From positions 102,163 through 126,162 of the forward strand of contig DATJIF010000029.1 in assembly GCA_035493475.1 (NCBI GenBank): DNA of 24,000 nt, written 5' to 3'. Of the stretch, positions 110 to 24,000 are shown piece after piece. The DNA comes from Actinospica sp. (GTDB taxonomy: Bacteria > Actinomycetota > Actinomycetes > Streptomycetales > Catenulisporaceae). Position 1 is the stretch's first letter, and each line of letters opens with the position of its first letter. The notes below the pieces were generated by a model that saw only the letters and a list, made by a program, of their open reading frames with translations, ran no database searches and had not been told where the DNA came from. The position numbers were made by a program, and so were the translations under genes.

Positions 110-1513
110 TTGGGCGTGTCAGATCGGCGGCATGTGCACAATGTGCGGATGGACTTGTTTGATCTCGATGCGGAGCCTGAGGAAGTGCTCGCTCATCCGA
201 GACAGCAGGCGGCGTTGGTGCGGATCGCGGTTTTGATCGGTCAGCTGCGCGCGTGCTCGAACATCGAGGACGGGTATGCCTTTCAGCAAGATCTTCTGGG
301 CTGCATCCTCGAAGTCGAGCGAGACTTCAACGGGCTGAGTAGGGCCGTTAAGCGGATGGCCGCCGGAAAACGGCCACAGCAGGATGCCCCTGAACCACAA
401 TCGGACCGAGACCGGGCTGACCTCGCCACGTGGCGGCTGGAGCGAGACATTTGCCAGCGGGTTGCCCGGCAGTACCGATGTGTCGGTGATGCGCTGGCGT
501 GGCGAGTCTTCGGGTTCGAGCGGCAGCACATCCTGGCGTTGTCCAGGAGCCAGGACTCGGGTGTGATGGCGGACAAGCTTGGGCTGCAGCGCGAGATCGA
601 AGCTGCCGACGAGGCGTATCGAGATGGGCGGTTCGCGCTTCTGCACGATTTGACCAACTGCCTCCGCATCGGCGACATCACCTACTTCAACGAGGACGGG
701 CCACTCACACGCGAGCTCAAGACCAACGAGATGAAAGAGGAGCGCAACACTCCGCAGACTCGTCGTGTGAAGGCCGCACGGCGTGCGATCGGCGGTAGGG
801 CGCCGCTTCCTGGAGACAACCCGTGTGAGCGCCTGTACGACCTGCGTATCCCGTTCAAGGCGCATTTGGGGGTACTCGCCGATGGCCTCGATCGCGCGGT
901 CACGCAGGGGATCTTCACTGCTTGTGTTCCCGGTGATCGGACCCTCCTGGTCATGGACCTCGGCGGCGTCCAAGCGAAGGGGTGGAGCGTGGACGACTTC
1001 CACGAACGACTGCGCAGGAAAATGGCGGCTGTCCGGCGGCGAGCGCACTTTTCCGTGGGCGACGAGTGGATCATCAACGCCACCAGCCTCGATAGCGTAT
1101 CGCGTGACCCGCTGCGGGTGCCGTTCGCGGCCTACCCGTTCCATCCCGCGCTTTGCACTCGCCTGATCGGAGACATCGCCAGCTTCGTCGTTGAGACCCC
1201 TGGGCCAGCACTGGCGCAGTCGCTGCGTGACGCCGGCCTCCATGCGGCGTGGACTCGGCCTGGAACAACTGCGGATCTGAAGCCTGGCGAGGTCGTCATG
1301 AAGATTACGTCGGTCAACCGAGTCCCGCATGGCCGTGGGATCATGGAAACCACGCGGACACTCGAGATGCGGCGCTCGGAACTTGAGCGCTACCTGATGG
1401 AGTTCATTGAGCAGGCTACGTGGATCGAAGGCATGAAATCGTTGATCGCCGAGCCACGCGCCCCGGGACGGCCGTGGCCGCATTACCGCGATGAGCACCG
1501 GGTATGGCGATAG
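110..1513 (+). CDS. hypothetical protein with PD-(D/E)xK-like nuclease motif
   Basis: 467-codon ORF with TTG at 110 directly after an in-frame TAA; the first ATG is at 149. Third codon positions are G/C-biased and the amino-acid composition is balanced. The equally long antisense ORF 119..1498 is Arg/Pro/Ser-rich and looks like a shadow ORF. The motif RIGD(189)ITYF-x11-RE(202)LK(204)T (nt 665-721) fits D...(D/E)xK. No family recognised by eye. Confidence 0.6.
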   Translation: MGVSDRRHVHNVRMDLFDLDAEPEEVLAHPRQQAALVRIAVLIGQLRACSNIEDGYAFQQDLLGCILEVERDFNGLSRAVKRMAAGKRPQQDAPEPQSDRDRADLATWRLERDICQRVARQYRCVGDALAWRVFGFERQHILALSRSQDSGVMADKLGLQREIEAADEAYRDGRFALLHDLTNCLRIGDITYFNEDGPLTRELKTNEMKEERNTPQTRRVKAARRAIGGRAPLPGDNPCERLYDLRIPFKAHLGVLADGLDRAVTQGIFTACVPGDRTLLVMDLGGVQAKGWSVDDFHERLRRKMAAVRRRAHFSVGDEWIINATSLDSVSRDPLRVPFAAYPFHPALCTRLIGDIASFVVETPGPALAQSLRDAGLHAAWTRPGTTADLKPGEVVMKITSVNRVPHGRGIMETTRTLEMRRSELERYLMEFIEQATWIEGMKSLIAEPRAPGRPWPHYRDEHRVWR

Positions 1514-7494: not shown

Positions 7495-8237
7495 CGGGTG
7501 AGAATAGCTCTAGCGTGAATTCCGGGCGGTTGACGCACAAGCAAGCTGTCGAGAAGGCGCTAAGCGACCCAGTGGCGCGCGCGGCAATTGCGAGTGATCC
7601 GCGTGTGGCTCAACGGCGGCAACTCTATGCGGAGAGTGCGGCAGGATTGCTCGCTGAACTGGCCGACCTGGGCTTCCGTGTCGAGAGCGTCGGCGAGCTC
7701 GCCCGTCAACGCATGAAGTACGAGGCAGCGGTACCGGCTCTGCTCAGGTGGCTTCCTCGAGCGACGTATCTACCGCTGGCCGAGGATATTGTTCGGACGC
7801 TCTCTGTCACCTTCGCAAAGAAGCGGGCATTGCCAGAGTTCTTGAAGTTCTTCCGCTGCCCACCGGACGTGGAAGACCCGATGCGCCCAGCAACCTCAGA
7901 GCCAGCCAGCGAGCATCTCCGTTGGGTCGTCGGTAATGGGTTGGGTATATTTGCAGGGCCTTCAGTTGCTGACGAGCTCATTGAGCTCGCCCTCGACAAA
8001 TCGTTCGGTCAGGCACGAACGCAGATCGTCCTTGCCTTGCCGAAGACGAAAGATAGCAGGGTGGGCGATGTGCTGATTGAGCTTCTCGACGATCCCACTG
8101 TTTGTGCATTCGCCATTGAGGCGCTTGGAAAGACGAAGATCGTCGCAGCCGAAGGGTCGATCGAGAGACTTCTCGACCACCCGGATAAGAATATTAGAGA
8201 CCAAGCCAAGAGGGCTCTTAAACGTATCCGAAGCTGA
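7491..8237 (+). CDS. HEAT-repeat protein, probable cognate immunity protein of the Rhs toxin tip
   Basis: The ATG at 7491 overlaps the Rhs TGA (ATGA, 7491-7494). 248 aa. C-terminal HEAT/PBS-lyase-like repeats (DSRVGDVLIELLDDP, AIEALGKT, SIERLLDHPDKNIRDQAKRALKRI). It uses more A/T-ending codons than its neighbours. Confidence 0.75.
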   Translation: MTGENSSSVNSGRLTHKQAVEKALSDPVARAAIASDPRVAQRRQLYAESAAGLLAELADLGFRVESVGELARQRMKYEAAVPALLRWLPRATYLPLAEDIVRTLSVTFAKKRALPEFLKFFRCPPDVEDPMRPATSEPASEHLRWVVGNGLGIFAGPSVADELIELALDKSFGQARTQIVLALPKTKDSRVGDVLIELLDDPTVCAFAIEALGKTKIVAAEGSIERLLDHPDKNIRDQAKRALKRIRS

Positions 8238-8959: not shown

Positions 8960-10327
8960 TTACCGTGTGTGACGTGGTCGCATTGTGGTCGCGCGGGATC
9001 GTGGTCGCAGGGGTCGGTGTCGTCGGATGACAGGGTTGGTCGGGTGTTTCGGTGTCTCGGTCGGTTCGGTGCGGTGGTCGCGGAGTGGTCGCCGTCCTGA
9101 TTCCAGTGGCACGGGCGTCGTCGGGTGTCGGCTCGCTCGGTCGGCTCGGGTCAGCGTGTTGTCGATGGTGTCCACGGCGTCGCGGGCGGCTTGCGCGGTG
9201 AGGTGGGAGTAGATGTTCGCAGTGGTCGACAGGGTGGAGTGGCGCAGGGTCTTGGAGACGACGGTGAGCGGGACGCCTTCGGTAATCGAGATGGTCGCGG
9301 CCAGGTGGCGGAGGTCGTGGACCGTACAGCGCGGGACGTCGGCGTGGTCGCTGAGTGTGTGGAAGTGCCGGAGGACGTAGCCGGGGTGCAGCGGTCGTCC
9401 GTCGGGGCGGGTGAAGACGTATCCGCCGCCGAAGTCGTGGGCCGTAGTCGGTGTTTTTTCGTTGGCGCGGTGTTCGAGGGCTGTGGCGACGCGGTCGGAG
9501 ATGGCGATCCAGTTCTTGCTGGTGCGGGTCTTCGGGGTGCCGAGGACGAGTCGGTTGTTGTCGACGGCGCACAGGCTCCAGCGGATGTAGAGCGTGCGGG
9601 TGTCGAGGTGGATGTCGTTCCAGTGCAGTCCGAGGGCTTCGCCCTTGCGCATGCCGGTGCCGATGAGGACCTCGATCAGGTCGGCGAAGGCCGGGTCGGC
9701 GCTATGGCGGTGGCGCAGGAACCGGGCGGCCTGTTCGGGTGTCCAGATGCGGCGTTCCTGGGCGGCGGGTCGGGGCAGGACGGTGGGTCGGGCGGGGTTG
9801 CGGGGTAGGCGGTGTCGGCGTACGGCGTCGCCGAGGGCGCTGGAGAGGGTGGCGAGGATCCAGTAGACGGTGACCTGTCCGCGGCCGTTGGCGAGTTGGG
9901 TGTGGACGTAGGCGGCGATGTGCGTGTAGCCGAGGTCGTCGAGGCGTACGGTGCCGAGTGCGGGGATCAGGTCTTGGTGGACGTGGGCGTTGTAGCGGGT
10001 GAACGTGGTGGGTTTCAGCTGTAGTCGCTTGGCTTCGAGCCATTCGGTGAGGTAGTCGGCGAGGGTCTGGTTGGGGTCGGCGTTGAACCCTGCGGCAGTG
10101 CCCTCGAGCAGGCGGCGCAGCGCGGTGCGGGCGGTTTCCTCGGTGGGGAACCCGCCACGGCGGATCGTGCTGCGCCGTTCCGGGTTGGGTAGGTCGACGG
10201 CGAAGCTCCAGGTTCCGTGGCCCGGGTCGGTGTGCAGGGTGGGGCAGCCGGCTCCGAGTTGGCGGTGGTTGTGGTCGCGGCAGCCGCAGCGGCGGTAGAC
10301 GCGGCCCCGGTTCACGGTGTTACGCAT
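8960..10327 (-). CDS. int: tyrosine recombinase / phage-type integrase
   Basis: The ATG at 10327 is preceded by AGGAG with about 8 nt spacing. 455 aa. The N-terminus MRNTVNRGRVYRRCGC is typical of actinomycete integrases. Catalytic residues are present: GMRKGEALGL (Arg), HDLRHLAAT (H-x-x-R), LRHS, ANIYSHL (Tyr). The ORF-track extension to 10900 is upstream read-through. The last about 55 aa are Pro/Arg/Thr/His low complexity. Confidence 0.92.
   Translation of the reverse strand: MRNTVNRGRVYRRCGCRDHNHRQLGAGCPTLHTDPGHGTWSFAVDLPNPERRSTIRRGGFPTEETARTALRRLLEGTAAGFNADPNQTLADYLTEWLEAKRLQLKPTTFTRYNAHVHQDLIPALGTVRLDDLGYTHIAAYVHTQLANGRGQVTVYWILATLSSALGDAVRRHRLPRNPARPTVLPRPAAQERRIWTPEQAARFLRHRHSADPAFADLIEVLIGTGMRKGEALGLHWNDIHLDTRTLYIRWSLCAVDNNRLVLGTPKTRTSKNWIAISDRVATALEHRANEKTPTTAHDFGGGYVFTRPDGRPLHPGYVLRHFHTLSDHADVPRCTVHDLRHLAATISITEGVPLTVVSKTLRHSTLSTTANIYSHLTAQAARDAVDTIDNTLTRADRASRHPTTPVPLESGRRPLRDHRTEPTETPKHPTNPVIRRHRPLRPRSRATTMRPRHTR
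8974..9092. repeat. five copies of GTGGTCGC, two pairs phased at 11 bp (candidate integrase arm-type sites)
   Basis: Exact 8-mers at 8974, 8985, 9001, 9074 and 9085. Pairs 8974/8985 and 9074/9085 are each spaced 11 bp apart and lie exactly 100 bp from each other. They sit between the tRNA remnant and the catalytic part of int, overlapping the low-complexity 3' end of the int ORF. Confidence 0.6.
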
Positions 10328-10380
10328 GATGATCGCTCCTAAATCGACAGGAGCAGGAGCCGACGAACCCATTGTCGACC

Positions 10381-10413
10381 TCGCGGGGATCCCCGCGACC
10401 ACACCGCGACCAC
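10381..10413. promoter_or_regulatory. 18-bp perfect palindrome plus inverted GTGGTCGC pair upstream of int (candidate operator / int promoter region)
   Basis: TCGCGGGGATCCCCGCGA (10381-10398) is a perfect palindrome 54-71 nt upstream of the int ATG. GCGACCAC, the reverse complement of GTGGTCGC, occurs at 10395 and 10406, again 11 bp apart. Confidence 0.45.
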
Positions 10414-10590
10414 AACGACTTACACGGCCAGGTGACCTGCGGCGATCCCTTGACGCGGCGCAAAGTGTGCGCCCGCGAAAAGCGGTTGTGACGAGCCTCC
10501 GGCCTGCCTGGCAGCATGCGTACCGGGGCGCGTTCGACTCACCTCCGCGGGGACGACAGTGTCGTGGTCGGGCCCTGCACCTGCCCAAGA

Positions 10591-10620
10591 GAACTAGCCC
10601 CGCGTGCGCGGGGGTAGTTC
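10591..10620. other. 30-nt near-perfect hairpin (13-bp arms, GTGC loop)
   Basis: GAACTAGCCCCGC-GTGC-GCGGGGGTAGTTC, with one G/G mismatch in the arms. It lies in a non-coding stretch between int and the TIR gene. Confidence 0.5.
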
Positions 10621-10650
10621 CCCAGACGGGAAACAGGTTGGCTGCTGGAA

Positions 10651-10678
10651 CTCTCCTCTCGCGGTCGCGGGAGGAGAG
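10651..10678. other. 28-nt hairpin (13-bp arms, one G-U position)
   Basis: CTCTCCTCTCGCG-GT-CGCGGGAGGAGAG. It lies 30 nt from the previous hairpin, and neither side has a T-tract. Confidence 0.5.
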
Positions 10679-11091
10679 TGCGAAGGAATCCCTCCGAGGT
10701 CGTGTGGCTGGCCATTCATGCGTGGAAGCGCGTCGGGCCGCGGCTCTAAGCACCTGGCCAGGCGCGATGGTAGGAACCCTATGGTCAGCACGTCTGTGAG
10801 GCGCTACAGCTTCTGGATGCGCGGGTTCGGGTCGCTGGCATTCGTGAGAATCCTGGGGCGGTGGTCGTGGGGTTGCGCGGTTGGGGTCTCGGTCGTTCAC
10901 CCGGTTCAGCGCTGATGTGCGGCATGGTCTCCGCCCCGATCAGTTCTTGGAGAAGACGTTCAGAGAGCTGACGAGCAATGTCTGCGCTGTCCAAGGAACG
11001 CCGTGCGTCGAGCAGCGCGAGCAGGGCAAAGCCCCGGGACGCAAGCGAGTATCATGAGGCCGCTGTTCGCGCGTCGCCGCCGAGGCGTAGA

Positions 11092-11763
11092 TCATGGCAG
11101 CAGGTTCACACCCGTGACCTCACCAGTTGTAGCGATTTCGTCGATCTTCATGGTGGCGTCGATTCGTTGCGGTGATCTGGCGGAGGTACGCACTGCAGTC
11201 AGCGAACCGCCAGCAGTGCCGACCTGAATGTCAAGGGAGATCAGGCCATCGGGCGCGTTCGATCGTCGCTCGGCCAAGTCGGGGGCGAGTGCGGTCAGCT
11301 GCTTGATGAGATCGGGTATCAGGCTTCGTTGACGGCCGCCGCGCTCTAGTCGGACGGCCTGTCGGCCCAGAAGCGGCGCGATGTCCCTCGGTAAATCCCC
11401 TTCTCCGGGAAGGGAGACCTCGTTGAGGTTCCCGAGCAGCAGGGGGATGACGTGGTTGCCATTCTCCAGCGCCAACCTGATCTCCCGGCGGACCCAGTCG
11501 TGAGGGTCGTCCAGCCGGCGGGCGCCGTTGCGGTTCTGCGCGGTGAGCCAGCCGGGGCCAATGCAGACGAGCATCACGCGGCACGAAGCGGCTCGGGCTT
11601 CCAGAACTGGTGTGAACTCCTGTCCTGGGCGTAGGGTCTGCCCCGCCTTGAACACGACCTCCGCGCCGAACGCCTCGGCGAGTTTCTCGTAGACGAAGTC
11701 CGGACCCCAGTCGCCGGCCTCGCCGCGGTAGCTGACGAAGATGACGGGCTCACGGTCGGGCAT
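11092..11763 (-). CDS. TIR-domain protein with C-terminal repeat-motif tail
   Basis: The ATG at 11763 has GGAG 7 nt upstream. 223 aa. TIR signatures are VIFVSYRGEAGD, SCRVMLVCIGPGW, DWVRREIRLAL (W-x-x-x-E with the catalytic-type Glu retained) and HVIPLLL. The tail (aa 175-222) is ISLDIQVGTAGGSLTAVRT...IDATMKIDEIATTGEVTGVNLL. The start overlaps the upstream gene by 14 nt. Confidence 0.9.
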   Translation of the reverse strand: MPDREPVIFVSYRGEAGDWGPDFVYEKLAEAFGAEVVFKAGQTLRPGQEFTPVLEARAASCRVMLVCIGPGWLTAQNRNGARRLDDPHDWVRREIRLALENGNHVIPLLLGNLNEVSLPGEGDLPRDIAPLLGRQAVRLERGGRQRSLIPDLIKQLTALAPDLAERRSNAPDGLISLDIQVGTAGGSLTAVRTSARSPQRIDATMKIDEIATTGEVTGVNLLP

Positions 11764-13237
11764 CAAGAGTCTCCAGTCGTGTGGCGGGGGGCCGCGGCCG
11801 CGCGGTGCGCGCCAGGGTGATGATGTCGGGCGCCAGGGCCCGAAGCCGGGCGGCCCGGCGTCGGGACAGGATCGACACGAGGCGTCGCAGGTCGCGTTGG
11901 ATTGTGATCGACCCGTTCGGTACCGCGGGGAGAAAGGATTCGATGACATCGGCCGCCCGGTCGCACTCGTGGACGTGCGCGTACGCTGTCGCCTCCCTGA
12001 TCGCAAAGCAAACCCGGGCGTGTCGGAAGGCCGGGTTCGGCTCCCGATCGTTCGGAAACGTACTCGGCATGGTCGTGGCGAACATATCCGCGGCCCTGCG
12101 GAACTCCTCCAGTTCCAGCAGCCCCGAGGCCTCGGTCAGGCGTGATGAGCTGAGCTCCGGGTCCCACGCCGGACCCCACTCCCAGTCCTCCGCGGACGGG
12201 GAGGACACGTCGTCGGAGACGTCGTAGAAGGCGTCCATCGCGCGCCGGAATCCCTCGCGGTCGCCGCTGCGGGCCCGAGCCCGGGACTCGCGTTGCAGGG
12301 CGATTCGGCGCAGTCTCGTCGGCAGGGCCGGGTCTGACAGCGCGAACTGGACGTGGTGCAGAGCGGAACGCGGATCGTCGGCCCGCAGCGCGGTCGCCGA
12401 TTGGCGGATCGCAGCGTACGCGGCGATCGCGGTGTCTCCGCTGTCGGAGCCGAGACAGACGGCCAGGGCCAGCCATTCATGCATCGCCTGCGCGTCGCCT
12501 AGTTCCTCCGCGAGCCAGCTCAAATACTCCGCATAGCGCGCCTCGACGCGGCGATACGCGAGAGCTCGCCCGGCTGACGCCGTACGTGCGGCTGAGTGGA
12601 GTGCGACGAGCTGGGCGACGACGTCGTTCACTACGGCGGCAGGTCCGACGAGATGCCGTTGTGTGCGTAAACGCTCCAACTCCGCCGCAGCTTCGACGAC
12701 AACCACGTTGACGGGCATCGGGGGCCGGGAACATCCGATCCGGGACAGCAACGACACGCTCGGGACCGTCACCGGATCCGTCGGGCGCCCGGATTCTGCG
12801 GCGAACAGCCTGACCAACGCGCCGCTCTGTCCGAGCTCTTTGTCCAACCGTCCCGCCACGTACTTCGTCCCGAGGGAATGTCCATTCTCAAGCTTGCTGA
12901 CGTACACGTGTGAAAGTCCTGCCGCCTTTGCCAGATCACGTTGCGACAGGCCGACCGCGTTTCTAGCGCGTCGGATCTCCCCGCCGTAGCCGGCGGCTAC
13001 CGGGCACTCCGCTTCAGGTGTGTGGCGCGTGGGCCGCGGCGCGACGACCGGGCCGGGCCGCTCGCATAAGGACTCGTAGACCCGCATCAGGCGCGTGGAT
13101 GCGGGCCGCAGCCCGTTCTCGACCTTGCTCAGGTGACCCTTGCTGTAGTCGGTGAGCCGCACGATCTGCCCCAGGCTGACGCCCGACGCTTCGCGCAGCG
13201 CGCGAAGCGTCCTGCCGTCCCCGCTCGATGTCCCCAT
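11750..13237 (-). CDS. dual XRE-family HTH protein with TPR-like helical C-terminal domain
   Basis: The ATG at 13237 gives 495 aa. It has two Cro/C1-type HTH units (RTLRALREASGVSLGQIVRLTDYSKGHLSKVENG and IRRARNAVGLSQRDLAKAAGLSHVYVSKLENG). About 300 aa of Ala/Leu/Arg-rich helical repeats follow. The ORF-track entry 11750..14953 over-extends upstream, antisense to real plus-strand genes. There is no SD before the ATG, so the transcript may be leaderless. Confidence 0.85.
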   Translation of the reverse strand: MGTSSGDGRTLRALREASGVSLGQIVRLTDYSKGHLSKVENGLRPASTRLMRVYESLCERPGPVVAPRPTRHTPEAECPVAAGYGGEIRRARNAVGLSQRDLAKAAGLSHVYVSKLENGHSLGTKYVAGRLDKELGQSGALVRLFAAESGRPTDPVTVPSVSLLSRIGCSRPPMPVNVVVVEAAAELERLRTQRHLVGPAAVVNDVVAQLVALHSAARTASAGRALAYRRVEARYAEYLSWLAEELGDAQAMHEWLALAVCLGSDSGDTAIAAYAAIRQSATALRADDPRSALHHVQFALSDPALPTRLRRIALQRESRARARSGDREGFRRAMDAFYDVSDDVSSPSAEDWEWGPAWDPELSSSRLTEASGLLELEEFRRAADMFATTMPSTFPNDREPNPAFRHARVCFAIREATAYAHVHECDRAADVIESFLPAVPNGSITIQRDLRRLVSILSRRRAARLRALAPDIITLARTARPRPPATRLETLDARP

Positions 13238-13387
13238 ACGTAGCAAAGTACTGAAAAATCTGGCCTCCTGGGATGCGTCTCGCGACGCTATGGAGTACTT
13301 GGGGAGCGTCGAGTAAACACGCAACAGTTCTCCGCGCGCCGCCGGGTTGCTAGTTTCACTGATCGCCGAACACGTAGATCTGGGGGA
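13238..13387. promoter_or_regulatory. divergent promoter/operator region of the two operons
   Basis: 150-bp gap with the most A/T-rich sequence of the locus (TAGCAAAGTACTGAAAAATC). AGTACT palindromic cores occur at 13247-13252 and 13294-13299. TACTTT ends 8 nt before the HTH-gene ATG and is a possible -10 box for a leaderless transcript. Confidence 0.4.
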
Positions 13388-13927
13388 ATGATGGCTGATC
13401 CAGACACGGTGGCGATTCCGGTGCTCGCCGGAGCGGCACTCACCCAAGGAGTGTCGTTTCTGTACGGCCAGGCTGCCGAGGCGCTGCGGATCAGGCGAGA
13501 GGGCAGGGCGGCGCACCGTTCGGCCCTGCTCGTCCCCGAAGCCTTCGAACCTGCGGACTTCGCTGTAGTCCCCGATCTTGCCGTGCTCGATGCTCGAGCC
13601 CGCGAGCTGCGGATGCTGCTGGCCATCGCTGAGCCGTTTGCGGGGTGCTCTGCGGACGACCTCGACGGTGCAGACGAATCGTTCCGTGCCTGCTTCGGCC
13701 ATATCCGCTTGGCCTTGGAGGAGATCTATGGCACCCGTTTCACGTTCTCTGGCGAACGGCGCCCCGGACCGCGCATCCAGCAGAGCGTCTCCGATGTTCG
13801 CGGCCGCACCACGGGAATGAGGGTCCGCGGCCAGGGGGCGAAAGCATCCGGAGAGATCGTCCAGCGAGTCAAAACCGTCCACCAGAGCGGTGAACTGACC
13901 GGCCTCGACATCGACTTCCGGGCCTGA
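13388..13927 (+). CDS. small protein: N-terminal hydrophobic Gly/Ala helix (Bell/HeLo-like?) + C-terminal repeat-motif tail
   Basis: 179 aa with tandem ATG ATG at 13388 and GGGGGA immediately upstream. The N-terminus is DTVAIPVLAGAALTQGVSFLYGQAAEALRIRREGR. The tail (aa 130-175) is IQQSVSDVRGRTTGMRV...IVQRVKTVHQSGELTGLDI. It lies 72 nt upstream of the STAND-like gene. Confidence 0.7.
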   Translation: MMADPDTVAIPVLAGAALTQGVSFLYGQAAEALRIRREGRAAHRSALLVPEAFEPADFAVVPDLAVLDARARELRMLLAIAEPFAGCSADDLDGADESFRACFGHIRLALEEIYGTRFTFSGERRPGPRIQQSVSDVRGRTTGMRVRGQGAKASGEIVQRVKTVHQSGELTGLDIDFRA

Positions 13928-13999
13928 CTGCCAGCGGCAGAAGGTCACCGCGCTTTCTGACACGGCACGGCACAGCGATCGTAATCCGAGGGAGAACTG

Positions 14000-16174
14000 A
14001 TGGACACGCTTGAGGCGGCGAACGCGACGACTCGACAGGAGATGGATGCGCCCGATCCACTCGACCACACCTTGGCGGTGGAGCGGAAACTTGAGCGGCT
14101 TGGGACCTCCATCCCCTCCACGTCGCCGGGCATCGAGGCGACTGCGCACGTGGAGAAGAACGACGGAGTCATCAATCTCTTGAACGTTGTGTTGACCGAG
14201 GCGCTGAAACTCTCGCACCTGGGTCCGGCCTACCTCGACGAGGTCCACGAGACATTTGCCGAGCCCGGTGAGAGCTTCGACCAGGCCTACAACACCCTGT
14301 GCGGCGAGCAGCGATTCGTCGTCCTGAAGCTGCGGCCGGACAGCGGGACGAAGACTGCGGCCATCGCCATGATCAGACGACTCGTGCTGGAGATGCATGT
14401 CGAGTCGAAGTATCTCCTCCCGCACGGCCCGACCGGCCTTCCCACGGCTGCGCTGGCCACTGAGAGGTGCCATGCCTTTCTCATGGATCTGTCCAAGGCG
14501 GAAGAGAGCCGACTCACCAGCGGGTTCGGGAGGGACCTCAAGGCCGCGTCGGCAATCCTGGCCGATGCGAACTCGTACCTGATCGTGCTGGCCGAGGCCG
14601 AGCAGTGGGCCCGGATCAGTGACGGCGTAGAGAGAGGTGTGCTGCATGAATTGCAGGCGCCCGGTCCGGAATCGGTGGCCCGGAAGTGGGTGGCCGCGAA
14701 AGCGCCGGGATGCGACGTCATGAAGTGGTTCGGCGATCGGCGGATCGCGGGACTCTTGCAGGACCAGAGCCCGCGCGAGGCGGTTGAGATCGCGAAGCTG
14801 ATCTGTGCCGCGCTCTCTCCCGAGATCCAGCCCGAGCGCACCGCAACCGCTGTGAAATCGGACTCTTCGGCCGCGGACACAGATTTTCAAGTGCGGGTCG
14901 CCAGCGTTGTGGACGCTCGAAGGCAGTGGCGCCCACAACTCCTGGACTGGCACAGGGAACCGAAACGGACGGCTTTCGAACGCAACTTCCTGCTCGTTGC
15001 CGCCGTGTTACGCGAGTTCCCGGTCGGAGCCGTTTTCAAGGAAGCGAAGTACCTGAGCGAGCAGTTCAAGGACGTGGGCGAGCGTATGAAGGGTCAGAGC
15101 GGTCCGGGTGTCATTGAACTGCTGCACACGATCGGCGCGCCCACCGACCCCGGCGGCAAGGTCCGCTTCTCACGCCCGCGATGGGCCGAGGCCGTCGTCG
15201 ACTACTACTGGAGTGACCGGCCCGACGGCCACGACGCCTTCATCAGCTGGCTGATTCGACTGCCGTTGAGCCGTACGTTCCAGGACGACGAGCGTGCCAC
15301 CGTGGCCAATCGCGTCCTTGAGGTCATGTTCGGTCTGATCATGACGAAAGCCCGGGTCAACGAGCTTGAACACGTCATCGACCAGTGGAGCGCCCAGCCG
15401 AACACGGAGACTGCGGCTTGGGACTTCCTCGACGCCGCCGCGCTGCACCACACATTGGGCCGTCAGGTCGCTCAGCTCATGCTCCGCTGGACGGGTACGG
15501 CTCATGTCCGTCGGCGCAAAGCAGTCGCGGCGGTATGCGGCCGCCAATTCGGACGAACCAATACAGGGAAGGCGCTCGTGCGGCTCCGCCGCCTTGTCGC
15601 CGACGAAGAGCCCGAGGTCGCCGCAGTGGCCGAACGGGCCTTGGTCGCGCTGTGGGAGCAGCCGGACGTCGGCCGCGAGCTTCTCGAACACCTCGTCGAG
15701 TGGCAGAAGACTGATGTCGCGGACCGTGTCGTGGCTGCCCGGAACATCTTCGGCAAGATCGCCGCGCTCCGCTCGCGGACCGACCCGACTCGCCCAGACC
15801 TACTGGTCTGGGCAGTGGCGAACGACGAGAATCTGAGCCTGGTGGCCGAGGGATGGCGCTGTCTGCTGGAAGGTGGCATCGAGTGTGATCCGCTGGTCGA
15901 CGCGTTGCGCCCATGGCTCGCGATGGCACGGGACGAAGCGGACGTCGAAGCCGACGTGATGTCCGTGTTCGAACGGGCCATCTCAGGACGACGGCGGGCA
16001 GCGGAAAGGCTGGAAAGGGCCGCCCAAGACTGGCGTTGGTCCACCGGTGACGTGGACCAGAGCCCGGCCGGCCGCCTCGTTCGCCGGCTCAGCGGACTCA
16101 CGGCGCAAGAACCGGTCACGACCATGTTCGCGGCGACGTTCGACGTTTCCAGTGAGCAAGGATATGGGGCGTGA
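14000..16174 (+). CDS. STAND/NLR-like protein with N-terminal repeat motif, degenerate P-loop and HEAT/ARM-like C-terminal region
   Basis: The ATG at 14000 is preceded by GAGGGAGAA. 724 aa. The N-terminal motif is IEATAHVEKNDGVINLL (aa 45-61, nt 14132-14182). The strand-plus-P-loop-like segment RFVVLKLRPDSGTKTAAIAMI (nt 14330-14356 covers LRPDSGTKT) keeps Lys-Thr but lacks both canonical glycines. A Walker-B-like HAFLMDLS follows. The C-terminal half is a helical repeat (EEPEVAAVAERALVALWEQPDVGRELLEHLVEW). Confidence 0.8.
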   Translation: MDTLEAANATTRQEMDAPDPLDHTLAVERKLERLGTSIPSTSPGIEATAHVEKNDGVINLLNVVLTEALKLSHLGPAYLDEVHETFAEPGESFDQAYNTLCGEQRFVVLKLRPDSGTKTAAIAMIRRLVLEMHVESKYLLPHGPTGLPTAALATERCHAFLMDLSKAEESRLTSGFGRDLKAASAILADANSYLIVLAEAEQWARISDGVERGVLHELQAPGPESVARKWVAAKAPGCDVMKWFGDRRIAGLLQDQSPREAVEIAKLICAALSPEIQPERTATAVKSDSSAADTDFQVRVASVVDARRQWRPQLLDWHREPKRTAFERNFLLVAAVLREFPVGAVFKEAKYLSEQFKDVGERMKGQSGPGVIELLHTIGAPTDPGGKVRFSRPRWAEAVVDYYWSDRPDGHDAFISWLIRLPLSRTFQDDERATVANRVLEVMFGLIMTKARVNELEHVIDQWSAQPNTETAAWDFLDAAALHHTLGRQVAQLMLRWTGTAHVRRRKAVAAVCGRQFGRTNTGKALVRLRRLVADEEPEVAAVAERALVALWEQPDVGRELLEHLVEWQKTDVADRVVAARNIFGKIAALRSRTDPTRPDLLVWAVANDENLSLVAEGWRCLLEGGIECDPLVDALRPWLAMARDEADVEADVMSVFERAISGRRRAAERLERAAQDWRWSTGDVDQSPAGRLVRRLSGLTAQEPVTTMFAATFDVSSEQGYGA

Positions 16175-16920
16175 AACGGTGGTGGAGGAGCGGTTCGGGC
16201 AACCTGGCGTGGCTCGAACCGTTCAGCGACCGCGTGCCCGGCGCGGATGGCTTTGGCTTCGACGTCGAATACCACATCGAAATACTCGCCGCCGACGCGG
16301 ATGCCTTGTCGACGCAGTATGACCCGTGTATAGCTGCCGTCCGCACGCTGGTTGAGCCGGCCTTGGCCCAGTGTGACGTCCTGCGTTCCGCAGTTGCACA
16401 ACAGAGTGTGAATTTACAGATATCGAGATCAATGTCGAAGCGCGAACTGGGTGCCGTCATCCGGCAATGCCAGGTGTCCGTTCGGGTTGGGCGCGAGACC
16501 GCCGAATCGGCCAGACGGCACGCCAAGGCGCTCATGGATGCGAAGGCCCATGAGGTGGGCCGAGACGCGGTACGTGCGCAGATGCGATTCCTTGAGACGG
16601 AAGTGCTGCGCAACCCGGCGACACTTCGGGTCTACATCTTGGCGACCGAGATCATGCAGGACAAGTCTGTCTCCGCCAAGGGCGTCGACGAGCTGGAGTC
16701 CCTGGCCAGACTGGTTTATGAGTGGTCGCCCGAGGCCACGTGGGTGGAGACCGCGAAGATCCTGAACGCCCACCTCGGTAGCCTCCCTTGCCACGAAGTC
16801 TCGGCCCTGCTCTCGACGCTCCGGAAAAGCATCCAAGAGCACGACAATCCGGCCCTGGTCGATCGGTTCGACCGGATCCACCATGGGCAGCAGGCCGACA
16901 GCCTCGTGAAGGGGACGTGA
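16171..16920 (+). CDS. hypothetical protein (helical/coiled-coil-looking), translationally coupled
   Basis: The GTG at 16171 overlaps the upstream TGA (GTGA), with AAGGA 8 nt upstream. 249 aa. No recognisable domain. The central region ETAESARRHAKALMDAKAHEVGRDAVRAQMRFLETEVL looks coiled-coil. Confidence 0.7.
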   Translation: MKRWWRSGSGNLAWLEPFSDRVPGADGFGFDVEYHIEILAADADALSTQYDPCIAAVRTLVEPALAQCDVLRSAVAQQSVNLQISRSMSKRELGAVIRQCQVSVRVGRETAESARRHAKALMDAKAHEVGRDAVRAQMRFLETEVLRNPATLRVYILATEIMQDKSVSAKGVDELESLARLVYEWSPEATWVETAKILNAHLGSLPCHEVSALLSTLRKSIQEHDNPALVDRFDRIHHGQQADSLVKGT

Positions 16921-17393
16921 CGGTGTTTCGGCTGATGACCATCGTGTCCGTGGGACACGGCAGAACCAGAAAGCCATCGATGTGGAGGGGGCACGGCAGG
17001 CGGCTAGACAGGGCGCTCGGGATTTCGACGCTGACCCTTCATTGTCACGAAGACAGCTGGGGGGAAATACAGCGCCTGATGGAGCGCGTCGCGATCTGGA
17101 ATGCCTCCCAGGCCGTCACCTACCATTCGAAGCCACACGTTGAGGTGCGGTTGCCCGGCCCGAAGGTTGCCGCTGCACTGCACGAGATGCGGGTCAACGC
17201 CTTCGTCGGAAACGCCTACGACCGAGCCTTCGTCCGGTGCGCCTACACTGCGCTGGCATTGGTCGTCGACCAGTTCGACCCGTTGAACCCGGGTAAGCCC
17301 CTGCCGCCGGTCGTCTTCGACTGGTTTACTTACGGCGTCGGCGGCCAACTGCCGTGGTCCGGCCGCTACGACCGCAGCACTGATCGAGAATGA
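16917..17393 (+). CDS. hypothetical protein, translationally coupled
   Basis: The GTG at 16917 overlaps the upstream TGA (GTGA). Alternative in-frame starts are GTG 16923, with the best spacing to GAAGGGGA at 16908-16915, and ATG 16935. About 152-158 aa. No recognisable domain. The ORF-track start at 16788 overlaps the previous gene and is unlikely. Confidence 0.6.
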   Translation: MTVFRLMTIVSVGHGRTRKPSMWRGHGRRLDRALGISTLTLHCHEDSWGEIQRLMERVAIWNASQAVTYHSKPHVEVRLPGPKVAAALHEMRVNAFVGNAYDRAFVRCAYTALALVVDQFDPLNPGKPLPPVVFDWFTYGVGGQLPWSGRYDRSTDRE

Positions 17394-17505
17394 GGGAAGT
17401 GACGCTGTGATGCACCTCGGGGTCATGGAGAAACGCTGAGTTGTTCGCGGATGCGGCGACGGCTTCGGTCAGTTCCGGTGGAGGGTACTCAGGGCGTTGC
17501 GTGGA

Positions 17506-18225
17506 TCAATCCGAATCGAGGATCTTCTCCCGCACGGCGTACATGACCGCCTCCATCCGGGAGTGCAGTTGGAGCTTCTCCAGGATGTTGCGGACGTGGT
17601 TCTTGACCGTGTTCTCGCTGATGAACAGGGTCTTGGCGATCTTGCTGTTGTTCGCGCCGGTGGCGATCAGCTTGAGCACCTCGAGCTCGCGGTCGGTCAG
17701 CTTCGGCGCGGGCGGGCCGGGGTTCTTGCGGTCCTCGCCATGCCGGACCATGGTGGCGAACTCGGTCAGCAGCTTCGCCGCCATCGGCGGGGAGATCAGC
17801 GACTGCCCGCCGACCACCGCCCGGATCGAGTCGGCGATCTCGTGCGGCAGCACATCCTTGAGCAGGTAGCCGCTCGCACCCGCCTTGATCGCCTCGTACA
17901 GGTCCTCTTCGTCCTCGCTCATGGTGAGCATCACCACGCGGGCGCTCGGCGCGAGGTCCTTGATCGCGGCAGCGGCCTCGATCCCGCCGCCGATCCCGCC
18001 GCGCGCCGGCATCTTCACGTCCAGCAGCACCAGATCCGGCAGCAGCTCCCCGGCCTTGGCCAACGCCTCCCCGCCGTCCCCCGCCTCGCCGACCACCTCG
18101 ATGTCCGGCTCGGTCTCCAGCACGGTACGCAGACTCAGGCGCATCAGGGCGTGGTCGTCGACGAGCAGAACCCTGATCGGCTCGCCGCGCTGCGCCGTCG
18201 CCGGCCCGGGCCGAGTCTCGGCCAT
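17506..18225 (-). CDS. NarL/LuxR-family two-component response regulator
   Basis: The ATG at 18225 is preceded by GAGGGAGGGG. 239 aa. The receiver domain has IRVLLVDDHALMR...DLVLLDVKMP. The C-terminal LuxR HTH has LTDRELEVLKLIATGANNSKIAKTLFISENTVKNHVRNILEKL. Confidence 0.9.
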   Translation of the reverse strand: MAETRPGPATAQRGEPIRVLLVDDHALMRLSLRTVLETEPDIEVVGEAGDGGEALAKAGELLPDLVLLDVKMPARGGIGGGIEAAAAIKDLAPSARVVMLTMSEDEEDLYEAIKAGASGYLLKDVLPHEIADSIRAVVGGQSLISPPMAAKLLTEFATMVRHGEDRKNPGPPAPKLTDRELEVLKLIATGANNSKIAKTLFISENTVKNHVRNILEKLQLHSRMEAVMYAVREKILDSD

Positions 18226-20245: not shown

Positions 20246-22180
20246 TCAGTAACTCGGCGAGGTGCCGAGCAGTTTGTCGCCGAGCGACTGCGCGTCCTGC
20301 CCCTCCACCGACAGCGCGTAAAGCAGGTCCTGGCCGCCGCTCGCCGCAGCCGCGATCGGCTGCCCGCCGACGTTCCACACGAAGCCGGACGCCTGGCTCG
20401 GCGGACTGGCCTGCACCGGCAGCGAGGTCAACGAGTCGTAGACGGCCGAGCCGTCCGCGTAGATCTGGTAGAGCCCGAGCGCCTGCGAGCTCGGCTGGAT
20501 CCCGAGCACCGCCAGCGTGTCCTCGTTGTACCAGTCGAACTGGACGATCGAGTTCCAGGCGTCCGCCGCGACCTCCGGAGCCGACAGGTCGACGCTGTAG
20601 CCGCCGCCCGCCTGCGGCACCGCGGCCGCCACCACGATCTCGTGCTCGCCGCGCATGCCGGTGTAGCCGACCGCGACCCGGTCCCCGTCCGGCGCCGGGG
20701 AGACCGCGTCGAGCCGGGCGCCCGCCGGCAGGCCGGTCACCGTCACCCGTTGCAGGCTGCGCTCCGCGTAGCGGTAGACCGAGGTCTCGCCGTTCAGCTT
20801 GTAGGTGAACCACAGCGCGCCGGGGTCTCCGGAATCCCAGCCGAGCTGCCCGACCGTCCCGCCGCCCTGGATCGTGGAGGTCGGGAAGACGGTGGTGAGC
20901 ACATCCCCCTCGCCCTGCCGCTGCGGGACGTACACGGTCGTCTTGTCCTGCCCGGTCAGAGCCATGGGCGGCAGGCCGCCGTCGCCCGGCTCACCCGGCT
21001 CCACCGCCACCGCGCTGAACTTGGCCTTGCTCGAGCCGAAGGCGACCGCGTGCACGGAGGCTGCGCCGGTGGAGTCGAGCTGCTCGAGCCCGCCGTCCGG
21101 GGAGATCGCGTAGAAGACCCCGTTCATGTCGGAGCGCACCGGGTTCAGGTCGTAGTCGGACAACTCCGTGTCGGGCTGCTCCGACGAGGTGGTCAGCCCG
21201 GTCGTCTCGTCGTGCACGGCGACGGTGGTCACCTTCGCACTCAGGCCGCTGAGACTCAGCGCGAGCTGCTTGGCGAGGTCCTGACACGCGTTCTGCCGCC
21301 CCGCGCCGCAGGCTCCGTTGCCCTTGATCGTGACGATCGTCCCGTCACCGGACAGGTCCACGCTCACGAAGTCCGCGCCCGTCACCGCGTCCTTCAACGC
21401 CGGGGACAGCCGGCCCGGCACCCCCGCCACCACCCGCCGTGCCATCTCGTCGGCCACCTGCTGATCGCTGTCCAGCGCCGGCAGGTACATCTCGGTGGGC
21501 ACCAACGCTTCCGGCTGCTGCGCGTTCTGGTAGTACACCACGTGCCGCGAATAGAAGGACTCGAAGTCAGAGCGCTCCATCAGCACGCCGAAACCCTGCG
21601 GCAGCTGGGAGATGCGGTAGCCGCCCTTGCCGGTCCCGGTGACCGTGAAGTTGTAGGTGGCGGCGGCGCTGTCGGCCGAGTAGAGCCCGTTGTCCAGCCG
21701 GCCGACCACGGTCCCCTGCACCTGCACGACGACCGAGTCCTGGCCCGCCTCCTCGCCCGCGTTCGAGCCGCCGCCCGGCGGGGGCTTCTGCGGCGCCTCC
21801 TGCGAGTCCGCCTCACCCAGCACCTGCGGGGTGCTCTGCGAGTAGTCGGAGAGCACGATGACCGTGTCCTGCTCGCTCTGCCACTGCGCGTGTATCGCGG
21901 GGACGAGATAGTCCGCGGCGATGGTCTCGTTCGACGGACCGCTGCGCGCCGCCTCGAGGAAACCGCTGACGATCTCGGCGGCGTTCAGGTTCGGATTCGG
22001 AGGCGCGGGCCACAGCTGCACCTTCGCGGACCCGGCGTCCTGGTCCTTCACCGGCGTGATGGGCCCGCTCACCTGCAGGCTCACGCAGCCTGACGCCAGG
22101 AACGCGACGAGCGCGGCAAGCCCGGCCATGCCTATGCCGGACAGCCGCCCGCCCCTGCCGCTCGCCCCGGGAGTCCTCAC
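20246..22180 (-). CDS. lpqB: lipoprotein LpqB
   Basis: The GTG at 22180 lies 2 nt after the mtrB stop; an alternative ATG is at 22129. The signal peptide has a lipobox (GMAGLAALVAFLASGC). About 644 aa. It lies immediately downstream of mtrB as in the conserved mtrAB-lpqB operon. The ORF-track extension to 23995 is read-through across mtrB in another frame. Confidence 0.85.
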   Translation of the reverse strand: MRTPGASGRGGRLSGIGMAGLAALVAFLASGCVSLQVSGPITPVKDQDAGSAKVQLWPAPPNPNLNAAEIVSGFLEAARSGPSNETIAADYLVPAIHAQWQSEQDTVIVLSDYSQSTPQVLGEADSQEAPQKPPPGGGSNAGEEAGQDSVVVQVQGTVVGRLDNGLYSADSAAATYNFTVTGTGKGGYRISQLPQGFGVLMERSDFESFYSRHVVYYQNAQQPEALVPTEMYLPALDSDQQVADEMARRVVAGVPGRLSPALKDAVTGADFVSVDLSGDGTIVTIKGNGACGAGRQNACQDLAKQLALSLSGLSAKVTTVAVHDETTGLTTSSEQPDTELSDYDLNPVRSDMNGVFYAISPDGGLEQLDSTGAASVHAVAFGSSKAKFSAVAVEPGEPGDGGLPPMALTGQDKTTVYVPQRQGEGDVLTTVFPTSTIQGGGTVGQLGWDSGDPGALWFTYKLNGETSVYRYAERSLQRVTVTGLPAGARLDAVSPAPDGDRVAVGYTGMRGEHEIVVAAAVPQAGGGYSVDLSAPEVAADAWNSIVQFDWYNEDTLAVLGIQPSSQALGLYQIYADGSAVYDSLTSLPVQASPPSQASGFVWNVGGQPIAAAASGGQDLLYALSVEGQDAQSLGDKLLGTSPSY

Positions 22181-22182
22181 CG

Positions 22183-23979
22183 CTACTCCTGTTCGTCGGT
22201 TCCGGTCCGCGCCGAGCCCTCGGCACGGTCCTGCGGCGGTGCGTCCTGCACGGAATCCCGCGCCTGAGACTGATCCTGCTGCCCCGGACCGGGCAGCACG
22301 AAGCGGCCGGGCGAACGCTCGAGCCGCGCCGAGGCCGCACCCGGTGGCGCGCCGGCCCCGGCGCGCACCAGGCCGCGCTGCATCGAGGAGGCCGTCGGCA
22401 GCCTGCGGTTGCGCTGATGGTGCTGCGAGTCCTCCGGCTCCAGCCTGATCGGCGAGTGCAGCAGTTCGGTCCCGACGGTGCGCGGGACGGTCAGCCGGAA
22501 CTGGGTGCCGCCGCCCGGCTCGCCCCACGCCTGCAGCCAGCCGCGGTGCAGCTTGGCGTCCTCCAGCGCGATCGACAGGCCGAGGCCGGTGCCGCCGGTG
22601 GTGCGGGCACGCGCCGGATCGGCCCGCCAGAACCGGTTGAACACCAGCGAGGACTCGCCGGGACGCAGGCCCACGCCGTAGTCGCGCACGCTCACCGCCA
22701 CCGCGTCCTCGTCCGCCGCGATGGTCACCACGACGTCCTTGCCCTCGCCGTGCTCGATCGCGTTGACCACCAGGTTGCGCAGGATCCTGTCGATGCGCCG
22801 GGTGTCGACCTCGGCGACCGTCGGCTGCTCCGGGAAGCGGGTGACCATCCGGCTGCCCTTGCGCTCGGCCAGCGGAAGCGCCCCGTCGACCACCTTCTGT
22901 GTCAGCACCCGAAGGTCCACCGGCTCCGCGTCGAGCACAGCGGCGCCCGCGTCGAAGCGGCTGATCTCCAGCAGGTCGGCCAGCAGCACCTCGAAACGGT
23001 CCAGCTGCGTCTGCAACAGCTCCGCCGAGCGCGCCACGGTCGGGTCGAAGCTCTCCCGCTCGTCGTGGATCAGGTCCGCGGCCATCCGCACGGTGGTCAG
23101 CGGCGTACGCAGCTCGTGCGAGACGTCCGAGACGAACCGGCGCTGCATCCGGGAGAGCTCCTCGAGCCGCCGGATCTGGCTCTGCAGATTCATCGCCATC
23201 TTGTTGAACGAAGTGGCGAGCGAGGCGAGGTCGTCCTCGCCGCGCACCCGCATCTGCTCGTCCAGCCGCCCGGCGGCCAGCCGCTCGGCGATCGCCGCGG
23301 CCATCCGCACCGGCGTGACCACCTGCCGCGTCACGAACCAGGCGATCACCGCGAGCGCCAGCACCAGCACGATCCCGGCCAGCGCCAGCGACTCCTCGAC
23401 GATGTTCAGGGTCTGCTGGTCCTGCGCCAGCGGGAAGACGTAGTAGATCTCGGCGCTCAGCCCGCCGCCGACGCTCACCAGCTGCCCGAACAGCACGGCG
23501 GGCTCCGGCACCGTGTCGTAGACGCTGAAGGGCTGGTTCGCGTAGACCGGATTGCTGATCTTGAGCCGGAACTCGGCCGGGATCTGCCTCGGGTCGAGGC
23601 CGCCGGTGGTCTGGGTGTCGATCGGACCTGCGTCGTCGCCCTCGAGCACGAGCGCCACCTGGTAGAGCTGCCCGCCCGCCGAACCGTCGTTGAGCTGCTG
23701 GAAAAGCTTGCTCGCCGCGTCCTTGAGGTTCGTGTCGTTGAGCGAGCCGCTGCTGTAGTTGTTCAGGTCGGAGCGTGCGATGGTGAAGCCCGACTCGGCG
23801 ATGCCGGTGGCCACGCTCAGCCGCGTCGTCTGCAGCCCGCGCGCCACCCGGTCGGCGACGAACTCGCCGAGGCCGACCGCCACCACGATGGAGAGCACCA
23901 TCGAGACGGCGACCACCCGGAACTGCAGGGATCGCCGCCACCGGCCCCTGATCCGGCCGGGCAGGCGCAGCGCGGCCAC
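22183..23979 (-). CDS. mtrB: sensor histidine kinase MtrB (5' end possibly beyond the window)
   Basis: It has a TM segment (FRVVAVSMVLSIVVAVGLG) and a second TM plus HAMP. The H-box is SHELRTPLTT, the N-box is NLVVNAIEHG and the G-box is GGTGLGLSIA. The GTG at 23979 is the first start in the window, but the frame stays open to nt 24000. Confidence 0.92.
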   Translation of the reverse strand: MAALRLPGRIRGRWRRSLQFRVVAVSMVLSIVVAVGLGEFVADRVARGLQTTRLSVATGIAESGFTIARSDLNNYSSGSLNDTNLKDAASKLFQQLNDGSAGGQLYQVALVLEGDDAGPIDTQTTGGLDPRQIPAEFRLKISNPVYANQPFSVYDTVPEPAVLFGQLVSVGGGLSAEIYYVFPLAQDQQTLNIVEESLALAGIVLVLALAVIAWFVTRQVVTPVRMAAAIAERLAAGRLDEQMRVRGEDDLASLATSFNKMAMNLQSQIRRLEELSRMQRRFVSDVSHELRTPLTTVRMAADLIHDERESFDPTVARSAELLQTQLDRFEVLLADLLEISRFDAGAAVLDAEPVDLRVLTQKVVDGALPLAERKGSRMVTRFPEQPTVAEVDTRRIDRILRNLVVNAIEHGEGKDVVVTIAADEDAVAVSVRDYGVGLRPGESSLVFNRFWRADPARARTTGGTGLGLSIALEDAKLHRGWLQAWGEPGGGTQFRLTVPRTVGTELLHSPIRLEPEDSQHHQRNRRLPTASSMQRGLVRAGAGAPPGAASARLERSPGRFVLPGPGQQDQSQARDSVQDAPPQDRAEGSARTGTDEQE

Positions 23980-24000
23980 GCCCCACCGGCGCCACCTCCG

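Follow-up and report, generated by a model that had tools for sequence, protein, structure and literature searches.

The UP-BIG-DOWN cassette and its distribution

Within the 24,000-nucleotide stretch of Actinospica sp. DNA analysed here (positions 102,163 to 126,162 of contig DATJIF010000029.1; referred to below as the window), three adjacent genes on the forward strand, designated UP, BIG and DOWN, form a cassette whose central member encodes a large NLR-like protein (Table 1). The BIG protein carries a phosphate-binding loop from which the Walker A lysine is missing, as it is in nearly all of its relatives, and is most likely an NLR-like switch that no longer hydrolyses NTP and belongs to a cell-death or defence module. 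A ribosome-binding site, GAGGGAGA, lies a few bases 5' of the BIG ATG. Both the reading frame and the P-loop-like segment RFVVLKLRPDSGTKTAAIAMIRRL, which had been singled out in an original prediction made from the letters of this DNA, proved to be real; HAFLMDLS, the candidate Walker B, is found at amino acids (aa) 158-165. An identical sequence is recorded as a "hypothetical protein" (P0001) of an Actinospica sp. metagenome-assembled genome.

An exhaustive phmmer search with the BIG protein retrieved 329 relatives at E≤1e-3 and 183 at E≤1e-10, counted as cluster representatives. A word-indexed search returned just 16 proteins, far fewer than phmmer, and further homologue searches with BIG alignments added nothing new. 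BIG, UP, DOWN and D2, a fourth gene located further downstream, have no meaningful match in Pfam, NCBIfam or PADLOC, while profile searches of PDB sequences gave just weak Walker A-centred or coiled-coil matches and tblastn found no copies of the cassette in plasmid or phage collections. Related loci were collected by scanning one genome per species with the closer alignment as the query. All 40 loci obtained in this way belong to Actinobacteria, with representatives in Streptomyces, Kitasatospora, Amycolatopsis, Saccharothrix, Pseudonocardia and Catenulispora. Gene content was then counted by jackhmmer on plus-strand open reading frames (ORFs) over 44 loci, i.e. the 40 scanned loci, three others and the window itself. 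Some distant family members contain extra domains, for example P0137 with a C-terminal HD domain (aa 731-806, E 1.6e-6), and several others have a long additional stretch, either at the N-terminus or inserted behind the P-loop helix (P0024, P0027 and P0069 are listed).

Fold and domain layout of BIG

AlphaFold2 models were generated for full-length BIG and for the domain spanning aa 72-345, with predicted local distance difference test (pLDDT) values of 78 and 83, respectively, and a predicted template modelling (pTM) score of 0.78 for the latter. Both contain a strand at 106-110, a loop at 111-116 and a helix at 117-132, which bears out the strand/loop/helix spacing first proposed for a Walker A motif, followed by strands at 135-139, 158-163 (AFLMD) and 193-198 and by a four-helix lid; around the Walker-A-equivalent segment the pLDDT is ~90. 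From the N-terminus on, these models give BIG an NLR-like layout: a short motif within a low-confidence tail, a predicted AAA+/STAND-type fold, a linker of helices and finally an ARM/HEAT solenoid. The N-terminal motif occurs as a single copy with the family consensus [ST]V.Q.V..N.G.VIGVQN, in which G56 is at least 90% conserved. The helical region at aa 291-392 may represent a winged-helix-like module, as judged from the predicted structure.

Foldseek comparisons, for which the matches listed were considered, placed the domain model among AAA+ ATPases of the PDB (E 8e-5 to ~1e-3, probability 1.0, template modelling (TM) scores of 0.4-0.5), including ClpA, TRIP13/PCH-2, RuvB, proteasomal Rpt, p97, RFC and ORC. 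The P-loop fold anticipated for aa ~100-330 is thus present and of the AAA+ type. The full-length model matched a designed ARM protein, importin-alpha/beta and PP2A-A; it also aligns near end-to-end to NLRC4 and NLRP9, with E ~5e-4 and low TM scores. The HEAT/ARM repeats initially suspected in the C-terminal part are likewise recovered by Foldseek as a solenoid of ~300 aa, and individual Pfam scans of 63 diverse family members found HEAT_2 in 7/63.

The clade to which BIG of the window (the query) belongs has in addition replaced five other conserved arginines (R263E, R411H, R449T, R491A and R558G) and gained R505 (window ~14787-15673). R263 is situated in a lid helix and several of the other replaced arginines in the C-terminal solenoid. 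These changes may reflect the change or loss of an anionic ligand.

Table 1. Genes, protein segments and neighbouring reading frames of the BIG cassette, in coordinates of the window
Feature	Coordinates	Strand	Description
UP gene	13388..13927	+	179 aa; homologue directly 5' of BIG in 42/44 loci
BIG gene	14000..16174	+	724 aa, NLR-like protein
N-terminal short motif	14138..14191	+	aa 47-64, ATAHVEKNDGVINLLNVV, within low-confidence aa 1-71 (pLDDT <50)
AAA+-type alpha/beta core and lid	14297..14815	+	core aa ~100-220; four-helix lid aa 223-272
Walker-A-equivalent segment	14312..14383	+	aa 105-128, RFVVLKLRPDSGTKTAAIAMIRRL; loop L111-R-P-D-S-G116-T117-K118-T119
Walker-B-equivalent strand	14471..14521	+	aa 158-163 HAFLMD with D163, plus acidic stretch aa 164-174
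Helical region and short beta-hairpin	14870..15175	+	aa 291-392; near-invariant W310, L314, W317, R328
ARM/HEAT-like solenoid, all-helical	15182..16105	+	aa 395-702; R528 invariant; W417, W463, C513, W639 conserved
DOWN gene	16171..16920	+	249 aa; GTG start overlaps BIG stop (GTGA)
D2 gene	16935..17393	+	ORF opens 16788, likely ATG 16935; fourth gene, clade-specific
Long ORF	110-1513	+	467 aa; no Pfam match at E≤1e-3
Long ORF	1562-4342	-	926 aa; no Pfam match at E≤1e-3
RHS toxin and HEAT_2 genes	4507-8237	+	RHS-repeat/PT-HINT/Tox-REase-7 polymorphic toxin, 995 aa, then overlapping 248-aa HEAT_2 protein
Integrase gene	8960-10900	-	phage-type
HTH and TIR_2 genes	11092-13600	-	HTH_31/HTH_3 regulator, ~616 aa (stop 11750), then TIR_2 protein; TIR domain aa 89-200 of 304-aa ORF, likely start near 11763
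1067-aa ORF	11750-14953	-	mostly high-GC shadow ORF antisense to UP and 5' half of BIG
Long ORF	20246-23995	-	1249 aa; no Pfam match at E≤1e-3

The phosphate-binding loop

The phosphate-binding loop was examined in a MAFFT alignment of 143 relatives, in which the P-loop aligns ungapped and several loop columns are counted over 138 sequences. The family motif reads hhVL-x-G-x-P-G-x-G-R-[RHYT]-T-[AT]-A..LL. Position 111 is occupied by Gly (70) or Ala (37) in the family and by Leu in the query, and position 114 by Gly (80) or Asp (30), with Asp in the query. Position 116 is Gly in 136/138 members, the query included. At position 117 the family has predominantly Arg (111 of 138, followed by T 10, L 5, K 4 and H 3) and the query Thr; position 118 is more variable (R 47, H 25, T 19 and Y 10; Lys in the query), and at position 119 the query shares the Thr that is commonest in the family (T 74, I 26). 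A true GxxxxGK is found in four family members, such as P0031 with GKPGVGKS. Because these GK-bearing members align without gaps, they fix the register of the loop, in which G116 corresponds to the second canonical glycine, T117 to the lysine position and K118 to the Ser/Thr position. The same register is obtained from profile alignments to the Walker A motifs of RecD, katanin, TRIP13 and VirB11, which are weak (E 0.07-0.5).

With L111 at the first-glycine position, the query loop has, by this alignment, lost the first Gly and the Lys and retained the second Gly. The canonical Walker A GxxxxGK[ST] is matched neither by the query (L-RPDS-G-T-K) nor by the family consensus (G-xPGx-G-R-[RHYT]). 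The original prediction, according to which both canonical glycines were lost and Lys-Thr was kept, is therefore correct for the first glycine; the second glycine is present as G116 and the lysine is the residue that has disappeared. The Thr that had been read as replacing the Gly before Lys stems from a register that was off by one, because the GK members place G116 at the second Gly. In the Walker B candidate, the single acid at the strand end, D163, corresponds to a column with D 89 and E 30 among 143 members (119/143 acidic), which is followed by a conserved Leu, no second acid, and an acidic cluster 3-6 residues past the Asp (DLPxDEED in the family, DLSKAEES in the query).

The register also bears on whether BIG could be an active NTPase with an unusual P-loop, in which the role of the canonical Lys-Ser/Thr falls to the family's Arg117 or, for the query clade, to Lys118-Thr119. 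The query does keep K-T if the loop is read in the register first proposed, Thr is the most frequent residue at position 119, and both the Walker B Asp and the downstream acidic cluster are present. In that register, however, the "Lys" position would be basic in just 52/138 members and the preceding Gly would be Arg, and the ungapped alignment to GK members and solved P-loop proteins favours the other one. Moreover, the second Walker B acid is missing, and Walker A Lys-to-Arg substitutions generally abolish hydrolysis in P-loop NTPases. An active enzyme is hence very improbable.

Conservation of the loop is pronounced. Among 585 family columns, G116 ranks 3rd and A121 12th, and Arg or Lys is present at position 117 or 118 in 131/138 members. 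Where position 117 is non-basic (T, L, Q or H), position 118 is usually Arg or Lys, which applies to 16 members, the whole query clade among them. Ser or Thr occurs at the canonical Mg-binding position 118 in just 23/138, the residue there being usually bulky or basic. The query clade comprises 10 sequences from Actinospica, Catenulispora and metagenomes with 43-55% identity, whose loop is x-RPDSG-T-[KR]-T. The GT[KR]T form is invariant in this clade and restricted to it, R117 having been replaced by T here and nowhere else in the family, and aa 107-125 fall into the top 1.3% of 19-aa windows for conservation (98.7th percentile). By these column counts, G116, the positive charge at 117/118 and the strand-end Asp are under strong purifying selection. 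The alignment thus points to a pocket of which the anion-binding loop, the positive charge and the strand-end acid are maintained and the apparatus for Mg-dependent hydrolysis is not.

The same data dispose of strain-specific decay, i.e. of a once canonical Walker A in a pseudogene in the making. The query loop is indeed the most divergent in the family (L111, D114 and T117). Against decay stand the retention of RPDSGT[KR]T throughout 10 clade members at 43-55% overall identity, the position of the loop in the top 1.3% of conserved windows, and an intact ORF with a ribosome-binding site and a coupled downstream gene; this explanation was rejected as having next to no likelihood. As to whether the glycine loss is conserved among homologues, a non-canonical Walker A is kept across them, with GR rather than GK as the family state.

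More substantial is the case for a fully nucleotide-free scaffold, an "iSTAND-like" pseudo-NTPase whose loop is kept for folding or protein contact and whose oligomerisation is driven by a ligand or by DOWN. The Lys is absent in 134/138 members and the Ser/Thr at the Mg position in 115/138, a conserved Leu takes the place of the catalytic second Walker B acid, the query clade also lacks the first Gly, R117 and the lid Arg 263, and inactive STAND modules are documented elsewhere. What speaks against such a scaffold is that G116 is near-invariant, that the charge at 117/118 (131/138) shifts by one residue instead of vanishing, and that the acid at position 163 (119/143) completes a pattern that retained anion-binding sites typically show; conservation of the loop in the query clade also exceeds that of 98.7% of the protein. 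A nucleotide-free BIG thus appears possible, if unlikely.

A sulfotransferase-type PSB loop (PKSGTT) was considered as another reading of PDSGTKT and rejected, given the family consensus GxPGxGR and the AAA+ ATPases among the structural matches listed.

The partner proteins UP, DOWN and D2

In the window, UP is separated from BIG by a gap of 72 nucleotides. The UP protein consists of an N-terminal hydrophobic helix, a helical middle part and a C-terminal region of ~62 aa with two pseudo-repeats [FR]V.Q.V.TV..G...GM. It has the consensus start MxD....ALxxAAL...FTFLY with an Asp near the N-terminus that is at least 90% conserved. In its tail, G/V/I/Q/N are overrepresented and L/P underrepresented, a BASS-like composition. 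UP has no match in Pfam or the PDB. On account of the described features, i.e. the hydrophobic helix and the N-terminal acid, it may be regarded as Bell-like.

A DOWN homologue of ~245 aa is encoded in 44/44 loci, and its predicted start lies at or overlaps the BIG stop in nearly all of them; like UP, DOWN has no Pfam or PDB match. D2 homologues are confined to three of the 44 loci, namely the window, L001 and L005, all from Actinospica or Catenulispora, and show no family match. Of the two coupled downstream proteins originally envisaged, DOWN thus holds up as a coupled partner throughout the family, and D2 is limited to these loci. At one locus from Streptomyces inhibens (L044, 4523-6439), BIG is frameshifted over three frames, UP is absent and DOWN is intact, which probably represents a decaying cassette.

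The original prediction had also drawn on amyloid-signalling NLRs. A hidden Markov model (HMM) of the UP repeats scored real BIG N-termini at a mean of 1.1 bits versus -4.1 bits for shuffles, and 11/35 N-termini, which are interrelated sequences, exceeded the 99th percentile of the shuffles. This weak signal in part of the family lends weak support to amyloid signalling, which does not extend to the UP-BIG pair of the window or to local alignment (see below). Templating of an amyloid type between the two motifs is accordingly plausible, weakly supported by sequence and unproven.

Relation to known NTPase families and signalling systems

The sole recurrent Pfam match of BIG relatives to an NTPase family is PF20720 (nSTAND3), found in 29/63 of the members scanned one by one, with a best E of 1.5e-5 and all matches below threshold. 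AAA_16 and AAA_22 appeared in 4/63 members each, AAA_16 again below threshold, and neither NACHT nor NB-ARC was among the families listed for these 63 members. The query itself has no match to nSTAND3 or to any curated STAND family model. nSTAND3 is the NTPase module of Avs5 (bioRxiv 10.1101/2025.07.08.663546), with which BIG shares a tripartite logic and a helical-repeat C-terminal sensor. BIG differs from Avs5 in having no fused SIR2 effector and in the replacement of the Lys by Arg or Thr, in addition to the sub-threshold nature of the matches.

The iSTAND and iSTAND2 proteins, which are third components of MoxR-vWA systems (PMC7159879, PMC8195603), are likewise STAND-type modules with eroded NTP-binding motifs and a proposed sensor or assembly role in conflict systems of multicellular bacteria, and they have N-terminal adaptor elements that are matched to an effector encoded nearby. 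In the BIG family, however, the loop is not eroded but swapped for another conserved motif. Furthermore, iSTAND is reportedly almost absent from Actinobacteria (Kaur et al. 2020, 2021; PMC7159879, PMC8195603), and neither MoxR nor vWA genes were found in the window or among the 25 families listed in a census of the flanks of 39 loci. As no MoxR-vWA partner was found in the window or among these listed families, BIG is not an iSTAND, and the label "iSTAND-like" of the original prediction is of use only as a functional analogy.

Precedents for hydrolysis-independent NLR-like switches come from functional defence STANDs, since SeAvs7 requires nucleotide binding, not hydrolysis, and the Walker motifs of KpAvs8 are degenerate (PMC13581612). 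These are single proteins with fused effectors, and the degeneracy of Avs8 is homologue-specific, whereas that of BIG is family-wide; the parallel with BIG drawn here is a functional one.

The closest parallel to the overall gene arrangement may be the Bell-domain effectors and BASS motifs of filamentous bacteria, in which the motif is duplicated on the effector side (Dyrka et al. 2020, bioRxiv 10.1101/2020.01.06.895854). In both the Bell/BASS-NLR pairs and the BIG cassette, collinear genes lie side by side in multicellular Actinobacteria, and the upstream one encodes a small protein whose N-terminal part has a hydrophobic helix and an acid close to the terminus. A G/V/I/Q/N-rich motif is doubled at the C-terminus of UP, and a single, possibly related motif occurs at the N-terminus of the NOD-plus-repeat protein BIG, the pairing of the two being statistically weak. 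In contrast to these pairs, the BIG repeats are ARM/HEAT-like instead of TPR or WD, its Walker A is devoid of Lys, and the UP-BIG-DOWN cassette includes an obligatory third gene that is translationally coupled. The screen by Dyrka et al. covered just the neighbours of Pfam NB-ARC and NACHT domains (bioRxiv 10.1101/2020.01.06.895854). The BIG family would hence have escaped it, because its NOD is recognised as neither.

Genomic surroundings

The cassette is embedded in a stretch of lower GC content (0.60-0.68 versus 0.70-0.74 beyond 18 kb). GC rises at ~17500-18000, where core genes begin (response regulator/LuxR, HPF and ComF-like), and a phage-type integrase is encoded upstream. The presence of the integrase and the rise in GC where the core genes begin suggest that the cassette is part of an integrated island.

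Further upstream lie the genes for an RHS polymorphic toxin and a small HEAT_2 protein, the latter probably being the immunity protein of the toxin. The HTH regulator and TIR_2 genes look like a two-gene operon that is divergent from the cassette; this pair also adjoins the Catenulispora homologue (L001, 2978-5513). With respect to the overlapping 1067-aa ORF, just its 3' ~616 codons, which encode the HTH regulator, have a counterpart among the genes called in L001. Some of the three long ORFs without a Pfam match may not be real genes, as the DNA is GC-rich. At other loci, the flanks of the cassette are variable and include transposases (common), Peptidase_M78 and metabolic genes. Type I-E cas genes adjoin the cassette in L002 (177-2672 and 12559-14310), and Gabija-like AAA_15/AAA_21, OLD-TOPRIM and UvrD genes adjoin it in 3-5 loci.

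A non-immune role would mean that the cassette provides filamentous actinobacteria with a scaffold for housekeeping or development, in which a degenerate domain of AAA+-like type is joined to an ARM/HEAT platform and the "amyloid-like" motifs are ordinary interaction peptides. Such a role would be in line with the failure to match PADLOC, the invariant residues of the sensor (R528 and several Trp), the statistically weak pairing of the UP and BIG motifs, and flanks that are heterogeneous and include metabolic genes. It fits poorly with an integrase-bearing island of lower GC content that has an RHS toxin and a TIR gene alongside, with the cas genes, Gabija-like genes and transposases found elsewhere, with the locus that holds a frameshifted copy, and with the hallmarks described for Bell-type executioners that UP displays. 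A housekeeping function is therefore considered improbable.

Proposed mechanism

The interpretation tentatively preferred, at a little short of an even chance, is that BIG serves as the receptor and scaffold subunit of an uncharacterised UP-BIG-DOWN module of filamentous Actinobacteria, has a hydrolysis-dead pocket and activates the Bell-like UP in cell death or defence. In this scenario, the pocket would be kept as a binding or structural element that holds a nucleotide or phosphate, or preserves the shape of the domain, without NTP hydrolysis. As BIG would no longer hydrolyse NTP, what activates it could be events at the ARM/HEAT sensor, the obligatory DOWN partner or both, in place of a hydrolysis cycle. 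Oligomerised BIG may then bring the N-terminal motifs together and activate UP, a putative executioner that probably targets the membrane and contains a related beta-rich motif in duplicate, and the outcome could be regulated cell death or defence. A more radical version, in which the Walker A Lys has been replaced for good, the switch is independent of hydrolysis and perhaps of nucleotides, DOWN takes over from ADP/ATP gating and a Bell-type executioner is activated in an amyloid-like manner, seems unlikely as a whole.

Several observations weigh against the preferred interpretation. Retention of nucleotide binding by BIG is argued from conservation and the defence function from genomic context, and PADLOC has no model that matches any gene of the cassette. 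The full-length model reaches a TM-score of ~0.18 to NLRC4, and the top Foldseek matches of the domain model are classical AAA+ proteins, not STANDs. Although the nearest family is a STAND, this does not establish STAND membership: all nSTAND3 scores remain below the Pfam gathering threshold of 27.2 bits (the best among ten members scanned individually is 21.4 bits), and the matches mostly cover the first 45 model positions, i.e. the Walker A region. The sensor domain holds invariant residues, unlike fast-evolving phage sensors. Several lineages have independently exchanged the residue at position 117 for L, H, Q, S or Y, which means that the basic residue is not strictly essential. As for the motifs, the UP-BIG pair of the window scores -3.8 bits with the UP-repeat HMM, and Smith-Waterman alignment of UP C-termini with BIG N-termini gave 24.0 for cognate, 23.0 for non-cognate and 22.0 for shuffled pairs.

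Implications

Inactive STAND modules and Bell/BASS-NLR pairs were already known. New are a large actinobacterial family without annotation that has Arg in place of the Walker A Lys throughout or, in one clade, Thr and a charge that has moved by one residue, the use of ARM/HEAT repeats instead of TPR or WD, and a conserved third gene. Nucleotide exchange is regarded as the gate of NLR and STAND receptors. With at least 329 sequence clusters, a Walker A that has fixed other residues in place of its Lys and a loop under strong selection, the BIG family would provide a natural test of whether hydrolysis, binding or neither is needed in NLR signalling. To the cell-death modules of Bell/BASS type known from filamentous bacteria, it would also add a class of receptors that is invisible to domain-based screens and a conserved third component, DOWN.

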